A DNA stretch of 64,000 bases from Bacteroidales bacterium (GTDB taxonomy: Bacteria > Bacteroidota > Bacteroidia > Bacteroidales > UBA932), in contig JAQYTJ010000024.1 of assembly GCA_028724885.1 (NCBI GenBank), positions 2,748-66,747 of the forward strand. Direction: 5' to 3'. Position numbers and translations under genes: made by a program. This document shows positions 17,989 to 24,271 of this stretch, piece after piece; position 1 is the stretch's first letter; the number at the start of each line of letters is the position of its first letter. The notes under the pieces are model-generated. The model saw only the letters and a program-made list of their open reading frames with translations, made no database searches and had not been told where the DNA came from.

Positions 17989-18000
17989 AAATAATTTAGT

Positions 18001-18048: not shown

Positions 18049-20070
<2,022 letters not shown>

Positions 20071-20084
20071 AAATTCGCAATAAT

Positions 20085-21353
20085 ATGTACAACGACATTT
20101 TTGCAAGGATTTCTAAAGATACTGGCGGCCCAATCGGCCAGTATTATGACGATGGCTATGGTTATTACATGTTCCCTCGGCTGGAGGGGGAATTAGGCCC
20201 TCACATGAAGTTCAATGGGGTGGAGATGCTCAACTGGAGCCTCAATAACTACCTCGGCCTGGCGAACGACCCAGAGGTACGCAAGGCAGATGCCGATGCA
20301 GCCAATGAGTGGGGGCTGGCCTATCCTATGGGCAGCCGAATGCTGACCGGCCAAACTCGCTACCACGAGGAGCTGGAGAGGCGTTTCGCAGCCTTTGAGA
20401 AGAAGGAGGATGCCTTCCTGTTCAATTTCGGTTATCAGGGAATAGTTTCAGCCATTGATGCCCTTACTGGTCGTCACGACGTGATTGTGTACGATGCTGA
20501 GGCTCATGCATGTCTGCTGGACGGAATTCGCCTGCACGTGGGCGATAGCTTCAAATACAGACACAATGACATCGAGAGCTGCGAGAAGGTGCTCTCCAGG
20601 GCTTGCAAGCTGGCAGAAGAAAATGGCGGCGGCGTGCTGCTCATCACAGAAGGCGTGTTCGGAATGACCGGTGCGCTCGGAATCTTGGACAAGATCGTAG
20701 AACTCAAGAAGAAATATCAATTCAGAATATTCGTGGATGATGCTCATGGTTTCGGCATCATGGGCGAGCATGGCAGAGGCACCTCTGAACATCTGCACTG
20801 CATGGACGGCATCGATCTTTACATCGGAGCCTTTGCGAAAAGCATGGCCAGCATAGGCGGCTTCATTGCAGGTCCGAAGGACATAATCAAGTATCTGAAG
20901 TTCAACATGCGCTCTCAGATGTATGCCAAGGCGCTTCCGATGCCTCTTGTCATAGGAAACATGAAGCGGCTCGAAATCATCGACAGCCCTAAGGGCGATT
21001 CTTTGCGCAAGCAGCTTTTCACAGTTACGAGGGCCCTCCAGGATGGATTCCGCAAGGAGGGATTCGACATAGGGCCGGCAGAGGCCTGCGTCTCGCCTGT
21101 GCACGTGAAGGGCGGAATCGGCGAGGCCACTCATATAGTCAAGGATCTTCGCGAGAACTACAAGATATTCTGTTCCATAGTCATCTATCCGGTGATTCCG
21201 AAGGGAATGATAATATTCAGAATCATTGCTACTGCTGCCCATACTCTCGAAGACGTGGACTACACGCTCAATGTTTTCAAGGAGATAAGGGAGAAGCTTG
21301 ACAAGGGATACTATTCCAACGAGGAGATTGCTACAATGACAGTCATGAAATAA
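20085..21353 (+). CDS. PLP-dependent alpha-oxoamine synthase, cysteate acyltransferase (SulA/CapB/CFAT) type
   Basis: SLNNYLGLA, DAEAHAC, VDDAHG, PLP Lys in AFAKS (K252). N-terminus DIFAR..GGPIGQY and SQMYAKALP match the sulfonolipid-type clade as recalled, rather than SPT/BioF. Confidence 0.78.
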   Translation: MYNDIFARISKDTGGPIGQYYDDGYGYYMFPRLEGELGPHMKFNGVEMLNWSLNNYLGLANDPEVRKADADAANEWGLAYPMGSRMLTGQTRYHEELERRFAAFEKKEDAFLFNFGYQGIVSAIDALTGRHDVIVYDAEAHACLLDGIRLHVGDSFKYRHNDIESCEKVLSRACKLAEENGGGVLLITEGVFGMTGALGILDKIVELKKKYQFRIFVDDAHGFGIMGEHGRGTSEHLHCMDGIDLYIGAFAKSMASIGGFIAGPKDIIKYLKFNMRSQMYAKALPMPLVIGNMKRLEIIDSPKGDSLRKQLFTVTRALQDGFRKEGFDIGPAEACVSPVHVKGGIGEATHIVKDLRENYKIFCSIVIYPVIPKGMIIFRIIATAAHTLEDVDYTLNVFKEIREKLDKGYYSNEEIATMTVMK

Positions 21354-21364
21354 ATTCTCTGAAT

Positions 21365-22186
21365 ATGAATCCTGAATATTTCAGAGACAAAGTTATTATA
21401 GTAACTGGAGCCAGCTCGGGAATCGGGTTGGCTTCGGTGCGTCTTTTTGGCTCATTCGGGGCGAATGTCGTGATGGCTGCGAGATCCTATGAGAAATTGC
21501 TTGAACTGGCTCCGTCGGTGAACGGGAATCCTGAAAAAGTGCTCTGCGTGAAGGCCGACGTGAGCGTCGAAGAAGATTGCAAGAACCTCATTGCAAAGAC
21601 TGTCGAAAAATTTGGAAGAATTGACATACTGGTCAATAACGCCGGTATTTCGATGAGGGCTATGTTCAAAGATATGGACTTGTCTGTCATTAAAAGGCTG
21701 ATGGACGTGAACTTCTGGGGCACGGTTTATTGCACTAAATTCGCCCTGCCTTACCTGCTTGGTACGAAGGGGCAGGTCGTAGGAGTCATTTCTACCGCAG
21801 GATATTGTGCTTTGCCAGCCAGGACAGGATATTCCTCTTCAAAATATGCCATCAGGGGTTTCTTGGACACTATTCGCATCGAGCATATGAAAGATGGCCT
21901 GAACGTGCTTGTCTTTGCTCCTTGCTACACTTCTTCCAATGTTCGCAATGCGGCTCTCACCGCCAATGGCTCAGCACAAGGCAGCACTCCACTCAACGAG
22001 GGCAGGCTGATGAGCGCAGAAGAGTGTGCGATGCATCTGGCAAAGGCTCTTGGGAAAAGACGTTCGGAAGTCATTCTGGGTGCACTGGGCAAAGCTTCCG
22101 TGTGGGTACACAGGCTTTTCCCAAGGCTGATGGATCGCCTGACTTATAAATATATTGCTAGAGAAACGGGAAGTCCCTTCAAATAA
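21365..22186 (+). CDS. Short-chain dehydrogenase/reductase (candidate 3-ketocapnine reductase)
   Basis: TGASSGIG, NNAGI, catalytic YSSSK; 11 bp after the acyltransferase. SDR fold is certain, substrate inferred. Confidence 0.85.
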   Translation: MNPEYFRDKVIIVTGASSGIGLASVRLFGSFGANVVMAARSYEKLLELAPSVNGNPEKVLCVKADVSVEEDCKNLIAKTVEKFGRIDILVNNAGISMRAMFKDMDLSVIKRLMDVNFWGTVYCTKFALPYLLGTKGQVVGVISTAGYCALPARTGYSSSKYAIRGFLDTIRIEHMKDGLNVLVFAPCYTSSNVRNAALTANGSAQGSTPLNEGRLMSAEECAMHLAKALGKRRSEVILGALGKASVWVHRLFPRLMDRLTYKYIARETGSPFK

Positions 22187-22195
22187 TTAATCGAG

Positions 22196-24271
22196 ATGAA
22201 ACTGCCACGTCTTCCAAAAAACTATCTTCGGATTATTCTTCCGCTTTTCGCGCTTTTCCTCGTTCTTCTTTTCATTTTTCCGAGGAATGCGAAATTCAGC
22301 TACGACTATAGGAAAGGTTCGCCATGGAATCATGAGACGCTGATTGCCCAGTTTGATTTCCCTATCTTGAAATCTGACGAGCAGCTTAGGGAGGAGCGTA
22401 GCGCGAACCGTTCCGTTGAGGTTCCGTACTATGTCTATAAGGAAGATGTGGTGACAAACAGCAGGAAAGCTGCCGACGAGGCTGACCTGGGGGACTATTC
22501 TTGGCTGAGGCCGATAATCGTGTCCTCCATGCTGGACATCTATTCCAGCGGGGTTGTGAGCGACGAGGGCGTGAAGCTGGACTCTAGGGCAAAGAAAAAC
22601 CCTGATGCGGTTTTATATATTCATAAAGATAAGAGAGTCACCAAGAAGCCTGTTTCAGAGGTGCTTAAAGAATCAGATGCTAAAGCCAGGCTTCTTGACG
22701 ATGTTGCTAAGAAAGCAAAAGGTGCCAATGCAGATTCGGTGCTGAATGATAGTGGCCTCTATAATCTCATCTCGCCTAATCTTGAATATGATGCCAAGAC
22801 GACCGAGCTGGTGAACTCGCAGAGATATTCTCAGATTTCGCCTACGCAAGGGTTCGTGAGCGCTGGGCAGCTCATTGTCTCAAAAGGCGAGATAGTCACT
22901 GCCGAGGTGGCTCAGATTCTTGATTCATACAAGGTTGAATATGAGGCCAGCATGGGTTACGGCGGCCCGAAAGTGTTATTCTGGTTAGGGAATGCTCTCA
23001 TAGCTGCGTTGTTGGCGTTCTTGATATTCCTAGCACTCTATTTTTCAAATAACAACATATTCAAAGAAAATAACAAGTTCTATTATGTGCTGTTCGTTTT
23101 TCTCTTGATTACCGTTGTAACGCTTATAATCAATAAATTCGCTCCAAGATTCATCTACATGGTGCCGTTCACCCTGACTGCCCTGTTATTGGAAGCGTTT
23201 TTCAAGAATAAGTTCATAATTCCGCAATGTTTCATATCTCTGCTGCCGCTTCTGATTTTCGCCAATAACGGAATCGTGCTTTATGTGATATTCATTTCAG
23301 GCAGCCTGGTCGCAATATATACTTTTAGATTTTTCAATCATAGCTGGATGCAGTTCATCTCCGCAATGATAGTATTCTGCACGATGGCTCTTACGTATTT
23401 CGGCTTCAGGATGATTGACATGGTGAATGATAACCCTTACCAGGCCCTCCTCTTCCTTTTCGTGTCTTCTATGCTCTCTGTGGCTGGGTACCCGTTGGTT
23501 TATCTTTTCGAGAGGATGTTCAACCTTGTGTCGAATTCTCGCCTGAGGGAACTGTGCGACACGAACAATCCGCTGCTGAGGCAGCTGGAGCATCTTGCGC
23601 CTGGCACTTTCCAGCATTCTCTGCAGGTCATGAATATGGCGGATGCGGCTGCGCGCGCCATTGATGCGAACCCTTTGCTGGTAAGCGCAGGAGCATTATA
23701 TCACGACATTGGCAAAATGAAAAACCCACTATGCTTCATTGAAAACGCCAGCATGAATCCAGGAGGGGCGCATTATCACGATCATCTAACCCCGAAGGAG
23801 AGCGCAAAGGCCATAATCAAGCACGTTGATGATGGCTTGGAGCTGGCGGATAAATATAATCTGCCTGAAGTGATCAGGGAGTTCATCAGAACCCACCAGG
23901 GGACATCCGCAACGACATATTTCTATAATAAATATCTCAACGAGGGTGGGGATCCTTCGGATGTGGCCGATTTCTTCTACCATGGGGAAAAGCCTTACAC
24001 AAAGGAACAGACCATACTTATGATATGCGACACTATGGAAGCTGCCTCTAGAACGTTGAAAGACAATTCCCAGGAGGCCTTGTCTGAATTCGTCGAGCGG
24101 ATGGTGGCTATGAAGGTGGATGCGGGGCAGCTGGATAATTCCATTATCTCCATAAGGCAGCTATGCACCCTTAAGCAAGTCTTGAAAGATTATTTAAGGC
24201 AAATATTCCACGAGAGGATAGAATACCCTAACCGTAAGCCCGGTATTGGCAGATTGGGGATAAATGTTTAA
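22196..24271 (+). CDS. 7TM-HDIG phosphodiesterase (PgpH-like, putative c-di-AMP hydrolase)
   Basis: N-terminal TM, extracellular domain, 7 TM helices, APGTFQHS, YHDIGK, HQGT, ICDTMEAA. Confidence 0.88.
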   Translation: MKLPRLPKNYLRIILPLFALFLVLLFIFPRNAKFSYDYRKGSPWNHETLIAQFDFPILKSDEQLREERSANRSVEVPYYVYKEDVVTNSRKAADEADLGDYSWLRPIIVSSMLDIYSSGVVSDEGVKLDSRAKKNPDAVLYIHKDKRVTKKPVSEVLKESDAKARLLDDVAKKAKGANADSVLNDSGLYNLISPNLEYDAKTTELVNSQRYSQISPTQGFVSAGQLIVSKGEIVTAEVAQILDSYKVEYEASMGYGGPKVLFWLGNALIAALLAFLIFLALYFSNNNIFKENNKFYYVLFVFLLITVVTLIINKFAPRFIYMVPFTLTALLLEAFFKNKFIIPQCFISLLPLLIFANNGIVLYVIFISGSLVAIYTFRFFNHSWMQFISAMIVFCTMALTYFGFRMIDMVNDNPYQALLFLFVSSMLSVAGYPLVYLFERMFNLVSNSRLRELCDTNNPLLRQLEHLAPGTFQHSLQVMNMADAAARAIDANPLLVSAGALYHDIGKMKNPLCFIENASMNPGGAHYHDHLTPKESAKAIIKHVDDGLELADKYNLPEVIREFIRTHQGTSATTYFYNKYLNEGGDPSDVADFFYHGEKPYTKEQTILMICDTMEAASRTLKDNSQEALSEFVERMVAMKVDAGQLDNSIISIRQLCTLKQVLKDYLRQIFHERIEYPNRKPGIGRLGINV

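Follow-up and report, generated by a model that had tools for sequence, protein, structure and literature searches.

A probable AF_KCR1-type SDR encoded directly behind a cysteate fatty acyltransferase in Bacteroidales is a candidate 3-ketocapnine reductase

Introduction

Which enzyme reduces 3-ketocapnine in the cell is the question raised by a Bacteroidales locus at which the gene encoding an SDR, here termed P0001, directly follows that of an acyltransferase. Host immunity is affected by the sulfonolipids of Bacteroidota from the gut and mouth, with TLR4 being one of the routes (PMC11525784). Published work aimed at finding the reductase of their biosynthesis yielded several promiscuous and unlinked SDRs and left open which of these is the enzyme used in the cell (PMC11211663). 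In that work, C. gleum and Alistipes finegoldii each provided three SDRs that reduced the product of cysteate fatty acyltransferase (CFAT) in vivo and in vitro, and none of the six was, according to the authors, encoded in a cluster with cfat; enzymes of the 3-KDSR type, such as Tsc10p, also reduced this product (PMC11211663). With three active SDRs in each of the two species, 3-ketocapnine reductase (KCR) activity in vitro is a promiscuous trait of SDRs and is no proof of a physiological role.

Three reductases serve as points of reference. Wu et al. [quoted passage not shown] CapC (QAR30703.1) is the dehydrocapnine reductase of Ornithobacterium rhinotracheale, as cited from Liu et al. 2022 in PMC12927429 and PMC11211663. 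KdsR (BT_0972) is the 3-ketodihydrosphingosine reductase of Bacteroides (Lee et al. 2022, PMC9278070). Both the pathway and its reaction are already in the literature, as very probably is the type of reductase considered here, and no new pathway is proposed. The present analysis distinguishes three reductase lineages, namely, AF_KCR1/P0001, CapC and KdsR, and provides comparative evidence tying the P0001 type to CFAT.

Results

The window, that is, the whole stretch of 64,000 nucleotides that was analysed, lies on contig C24 of a Bacteroidales genome (G000; 2.74 Mb, 98.5% complete), with close protein matches bearing the labels 'MAG: Bacteroidales bacterium' or 'Candidatus Cryptobacteroides sp.' On the plus strand, gyrB (18055-20070; NCBIfam gyrB, 918-961 bits) is followed after 14 nt by a gene encoding a 422-residue alpha-oxoamine synthase of the SulA/CapB/CFAT type (20085-21353). 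The TAA stop codon of this gene ends at 21353, while the ATG start codon of the gene encoding the 273-residue P0001 (21365-22186, plus strand) begins at 21365. ORF coordinates hence confirm the 11-bp gap given in the preliminary description (21354-21364), a distance too short to accommodate a promoter or terminator. After a further 9 nt, there appears a gene on the same strand encoding a 7TM-HD (HDIG) membrane hydrolase (22196-24271; Pfam 7TM-7TMR_HD, HD and 7TMR-HDED), followed by tig, clpP, clpX and pyrF. Because equally short gaps separate the housekeeping neighbors, the distance between the CFAT and SDR genes is by itself weak evidence, and it is the comparative data that carry the case.

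A scan of the region spanning 17.7-30.5 kb of the window for the Bacteroidetes-type -7 motif TAnnTTTG revealed only two sites, namely, TAAATTTG at position 18000, before gyrB, and TAACTTTG at position 24269, before tig. No terminator-like hairpin was detected in the 14-, 11- and 9-nt gaps between the four genes. The positions of these motifs suggest that gyrB, CFAT, SDR and 7TM-HD are probably transcribed as one unit, with gyrB as the first gene. As such, the two lipid genes may be carried on the gyrB transcript, while the 7TM-HD gene would probably be co-transcribed with that of the SDR. A scan for sigma-70 promoters and terminators, uninformative for Bacteroidota, returned matches not above shuffled expectation. 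The 7TM-HD hydrolase presented no sign of a role in the sulfonolipid pathway, and a Pfam profile search of the neighborhood in the window revealed no catabolic genes near the SDR gene.

The product of the gene upstream of that encoding the SDR was compared with proteins of the PDB using phmmer. The best scores were obtained with A. finegoldii SulA (7U7H; 572 bits) and C. ochracea CapB (28EH; 528 bits), as compared to 217 bits for the best serine palmitoyltransferase (SPT), and no NCBIfam SPT/Kbl/BioF model was matched above its cut-off. When considered against a published list of CFAT pocket residues (PMC13692747), N54, F115-G116-Y117, H141, C143, D218, H221, K252, M279 and K282 were all seen to be kept. 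This includes the catalytic lysine, K252, and K282, with the latter corresponding to SulA K281, a SulA-specific lysine. Judging from its sequence, the upstream gene is a true CFAT gene, closer to SulA/CapB than to SPT. The rest of an AF_KCR1-type pathway was also found in this genome, with CFAT adjoining the SDR and an archaeal-type cysteate synthase being encoded on contig C8 (TIGR03844, 408 bits, above cut-off). Because both CFAT and cysteate synthase are encoded, the cell is expected to produce 3-ketocapnine, on which such a reductase would act.

P0001 presents the motifs of a classical SDR, namely, TGASSGIG at residues 14-21, NNAG at residues 91-94, N116, S143 and Y156-x3-K160. In an alignment of 62 sequences, T14, G15, G19, G21, N116 and K160 were invariant, while S143 and Y156 were at least 90% conserved. 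The catalytic motifs earlier described as intact are indeed so, and are conserved in the relatives of the protein. P0001 was matched by Pfam adh_short (PF00106; 164 bits) and by NCBIfam PRK06181 (288.6 bits; cut-off 215). The AlphaFold (AF2) model of the protein (pLDDT 95.4; pTM 0.93) adopts a Rossmann fold of a size within the 250-280-residue range and matches more than 500 SDR structures, with clavulanate dehydrogenase and the lipid-handling 11beta-HSD1 being the nearest folds over the full length. This match, which includes the two C-terminal helices of the model (residues 240-265), suggests a hydrophobic substrate site. An arginine, R40, is found after beta2, in the sequence 'AARS.' Reductive SDRs that bind NADP(H), 11beta-HSD1 among them, typically have an arginine at this position. 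This residue, read by the SDR coenzyme rules, together with the full-length match to NADPH-dependent 11beta-HSD1 and to clavulanate dehydrogenase, suggests that P0001 is a reductase with a preference for NADPH.

The relation of P0001 to AF_KCR1 was considered using the printed 22-residue active-site segment of the latter, HGSIVGISSVAGLHGLPGRTGY (PMC11211663, supplementary Fig. S10). At the corresponding position, P0001 reads KGQVVGVISTAGYCALPARTGY. A 16-residue segment of AF_KCR1 was back-translated and searched in 301 Bacteroidales genomes, with up to 3 nucleotide mismatches being allowed. Matches were obtained in 24 of the 301 genomes, with none being obtained with the reversed control. All 23 placeable matches fell inside a P0001-type orthologue, with the other (in G291) lying at a contig end and hence not being placeable. 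Those P0001-type orthologues that were fetched agree with the 22-mer at 14-20 of 22 positions. The exact 22-mer (22/22) appears in 45 proteins, with the full-length proteins among them forming a subclade whose members bear the label Alistipes sp. or Rikenellaceae; those full-length members that were checked share some 50% identity with P0001 over 268 residues. A quick ML tree joined this subclade, P0001 and all of the fetched Bacteroidales orthologues (SH-aLRT 89), and set this AF_KCR1/P0001 clade apart from a clade of a second SDR, SDR2 (99), and from a grouping of KdsR-like and CapC-like proteins (96). On the basis of the 22-residue printed segment and a quick tree with moderate support at the key node, P0001 is very likely orthologous to AF_KCR1. 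Three genomes containing the closest CFATs (G090, G119 and G292) were also considered as possibly being Alistipes; since five SulA peptides matched these at only 5-8 of 12-15 positions, the three were unusable for reading AF_KCR1 directly.

The CapC active-site segment presented in the mLife 2024 supplement (PMC11211663) was likewise back-translated and searched, in this case in species-representative genomes. One locus containing the exact motif was found, in Weeksellaceae bacterium TAE3-ERU29 (JAHUUM010000002.1, L013:1-2393), where the gene order is CapA-type cysteate synthase (569 bits), CapC-motif SDR and capB-like synthase. In this compact capA-capC-capB arrangement, the reductase gene lies between those of cysteate synthase and acyltransferase, and so a reductase encoded next to the acyltransferase is not new in itself. 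P0001 shares 30% identity over 201 residues (89 bits) with the CapC-like protein. The best NCBIfam matches of the latter are PRK06182, PRK06914 and KdsR (149 bits), as opposed to PRK06181 (288.6 bits) for P0001. The low identity, the different best families and the different tree clades rule out P0001 as a CapC orthologue.

Ketosphinganine reductases were next compared. The KdsR model (NCBIfam NF049977; curated cut-off, 400 bits) was absent from the 25 best families of P0001. A KdsR-like SDR is instead encoded on contig C40 of the same genome (C40:24631-26612; L004:701-2691, minus strand), where the gene encoding an SPT-like synthase (NF047600, 588 bits) and that encoding the SDR (C40:24631-25416; best family NF049977, 290 bits) overlap by 4 nt, with the reductase coming directly after the synthase. 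P0001 shares 25-28% identity with this protein. The comparisons with CapC and ketosphinganine reductases called for in the preliminary description thus returned neither relationship, with P0001 not being KdsR-type and with CapC itself grouping with the KdsR-type reductases. By sequence, the genome thus appears to hold two modules of a condensing enzyme and a downstream reductase, one of the sulfonolipid type and one of the sphingolipid type, with the C40 pair probably serving sphingolipid synthesis.

To follow the P0001 orthologue group across genomes, a sample of 301 Bacteroidales genomes was considered, with a cut-off of E≤1e-60 defining orthologues and with counts being tallied from per-genome search tables. 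The co-occurrence counts are descriptive rather than a statistical test, as these are related genomes and the counts overstate independence. The 166 carriers of a P0001 orthologue comprise 160 of the 228 genomes containing a CFAT orthologue, none of the 44 genomes containing only an SPT-like synthase, where no match was seen even at E≤1e-30, and 6 of the 29 genomes containing no such synthase. The orthologue is hence found in 6 of 73 CFAT-negative genomes and is absent from 68 of the 228 CFAT-positive genomes. Completeness is 77-93% for five of the six CFAT-negative carriers and 98% for the other; in one of the six (G157), the SDR gene is found at a contig edge, exactly where a congener (G274) has CFAT. 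In other orders of the Bacteroidia, all 21 carriers of the P0001 type in a 251-genome phylum sample are CFAT-positive. All 17 genomes of family f150 contain CFAT and none of them the P0001-type SDR, while in family f151, two genomes contain both genes and one (G523) contains neither. Within the genus of the window, G000 encodes both CFAT with the SDR and SPT with the KdsR-like protein, G006 encodes only the former pair and G269 encodes only the latter, as adjacent genes; G006 and G269 are each 100% complete. The P0001 orthologue group therefore tracks CFAT across the class Bacteroidia. The CapC type has two carriers among the 251 genomes of the phylum sample, both CFAT-positive and without the P0001 type, and offers weak support.

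In a separate observation, all 41 genomes of family f171, belonging to another class, encode a CFAT-like synthase (45-49% identity; E of about 1e-120 to 1e-129), with the P0001-type SDR being found in 0 of 41.

Conservation of the physical linkage was also examined. Same-strand adjacency of CFAT and the SDR, with gaps of 4-34 nt, was seen in G000 and in four further genomes from two families, G006, G152, G124 and G244. The SDRs of these five genomes form one subclade in the tree (99), corresponding to one sub-lineage. In G274, the two genes are divergent and separated by a 280-bp spacer. The flanking gyrB and HD genes are both kept only within the genus (G006), where the 7TM-HD gene again follows the pair. 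In G152, gyrB is nearby and 7TM-HD does not follow, while neither flanking gene is found in G124 or G244. Elsewhere in the Bacteroidales, CFAT and the SDR are encoded 30-260 kb apart or on different contigs, while in other orders, the distance ranges from 136 kb to several Mb. Since adjacency is confined to one sub-lineage and the genes are dispersed in most genomes, the linkage is lineage-limited and not general. The expectation that adjacency is conserved thus held within a sub-lineage of Bacteroidales and failed in most genomes.

Other enzymes were also noted near CFAT genes. In two other Bacteroidales families, SDR2, sharing 27-35% identity with P0001, is encoded together with a VOC/glyoxalase-like protein of about 356 residues beside CFAT in G090 (L019:2169-7029), G124 (L016:7293-9157) and G244 (L017). 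G090 presents the genes for CFAT, a 406-residue PALP enzyme, SDR2 and VOC in this order; the SDR2-VOC module is absent from the window's genome. As G124 and G244 carry SDR2 beside CFAT as well, adjacency alone cannot tell which SDR is the reductase. In G134, the P0001-type SDR gene is convergent with and some 1.1 kb from that of a third kind of alpha-oxoamine synthase (L023:4495-5733, minus strand) sharing 35% identity with the SPT-like protein and 28% with CFAT, with the true CFAT being encoded 31 kb away on the same contig.

Discussion

The proposal that the SDR is a candidate 3-ketocapnine reductase is supported by the true CFAT predicted upstream, by the manner in which orthologues of the protein track CFAT and by its very probable kinship with AF_KCR1. 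It is therefore considered likely that P0001 acts as the NADPH-dependent 3-ketocapnine reductase of the sulfonolipid pathway, as a member of the AF_KCR1 orthologue group and not of the CapC or KdsR types. In the proposed route, cysteate would be provided by the cysteate synthase of archaeal type, whose gene lies on another contig, CFAT would condense this with a fatty acyl thioester (acyl-ACP/CoA) to yield 3-ketocapnine, and P0001 would then reduce the C3 ketone, generating capnine by the usual Ser-Tyr-Lys mechanism. The two genes would be co-transcribed from the gyrB promoter.

Other explanations can be weighed against this reading. The KdsR-like SDR of contig C40 could reduce both 3-ketosphinganine and 3-ketocapnine, leaving P0001 to some other sulfonolipid-linked redox step or to another lipid. 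In its favor, the nearest relative of CapC in this genome is the KdsR-like SDR (32%, 127 bits), ahead of P0001 (30%, 89 bits), CapC-like and KdsR-like proteins cluster in the tree, and Tsc10p-type (3-KDSR) enzymes are reported to reduce the CFAT product (PMC11211663). Yet G006, complete and of the same genus, encodes CFAT and P0001 with no KdsR match at E≤1e-60, KdsR-type genes are rare, being found in 52 of 301 Bacteroidales genomes as compared to 228 for CFAT, and capnine or sulfobacin is reached without a further reductive step in the pathway as described (PMC11211663, PMC10191378). As such, this division of labor is unlikely.

It could also be that P0001 is a general-purpose SDR, placed next to CFAT by chance within a compact housekeeping operon, with shared ancestry alone explaining why the two genes are found in the same genomes. 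Short gaps are indeed also found toward the gyrB- and HD-side neighbors, CFAT and the SDR are encoded 30 kb to several Mb apart in most genomes, and the sampled genomes are phylogenetically related. Such an account is nonetheless quite improbable, given that both genes are missing together at a fine scale, from G269 in the genus and from G523 in f151, that no SPT-only genome offers even a weak match at E≤1e-30, that the pair is kept in G124 and G244, where both gyrB and HD are missing from the flanks, and in divergent orientation in G274, and that motif and tree tie the protein to a validated KCR. Finally, SDRs are reversible in principle, and P0001 might mainly act oxidatively, with capnine or a hydroxy-lipid as the substrate of a dehydrogenase that serves turnover and not synthesis. 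The 'AARS' arginine after beta2, as expected of reductive NADP(H) SDRs, the fold match to 11beta-HSD1 and the linkage of the gene to that of a biosynthetic acyltransferase, with no catabolic genes nearby, argue against this role, which is very improbable.

The adjacency to CFAT, the near-exclusive co-occurrence and the split within one genus between CFAT with SDR and SPT with KdsR together point to a single SDR orthologue group, which is probably the one containing AF_KCR1, as the likely enzyme of Bacteroidales cells. That the P0001/AF_KCR1 group is not orthologous to CapC will aid genome annotation and the prediction of sulfonolipid producers from metagenomes. A broader and more tentative idea, held with slightly less than even confidence, is that, of the several SDRs able to reduce 3-ketocapnine in vitro, those of the P0001/AF_KCR1 type are dedicated to this step in the cell throughout the Bacteroidia, having been recruited independently of the CapC type of Ornithobacterium/Weeksellaceae. 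Producers of both sphingolipids and sulfonolipids would then retain two substrate-discriminating reductases, one per long-chain base, with the gene of each coming straight after that of the matching condensing enzyme.

Among known systems, 11beta-HSD1 and clavulanic acid dehydrogenase share with P0001 the fold, a cofactor site of the NADP(H) type and a helical extension at the C-terminus (TM 0.77-0.80); with 25-31% identity and unrelated substrates, the likeness is a structural analogy only. AF_KCR1 is, like P0001, a classical SDR of some 270 residues placed in the same tree clade through proteins containing its exact segment, and it is from these proteins that about 50% identity to P0001 is expected. 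The AF_KCR1 gene of A. finegoldii reportedly does not cluster with cfat, whereas that of P0001 lies 11 nt downstream of CFAT. CapC shares with P0001 the same proposed reaction and a gene beside that of the acyltransferase, but belongs to another SDR subfamily, with CapC-like proteins grouping with KdsR-like proteins in the tree. KdsR performs an analogous keto-reduction of a long-chain base, and in the window's genome the SPT and KdsR-like pair is arranged as are CFAT and the SDR; the KdsR type, however, goes with SPT, while the P0001 type goes with CFAT.
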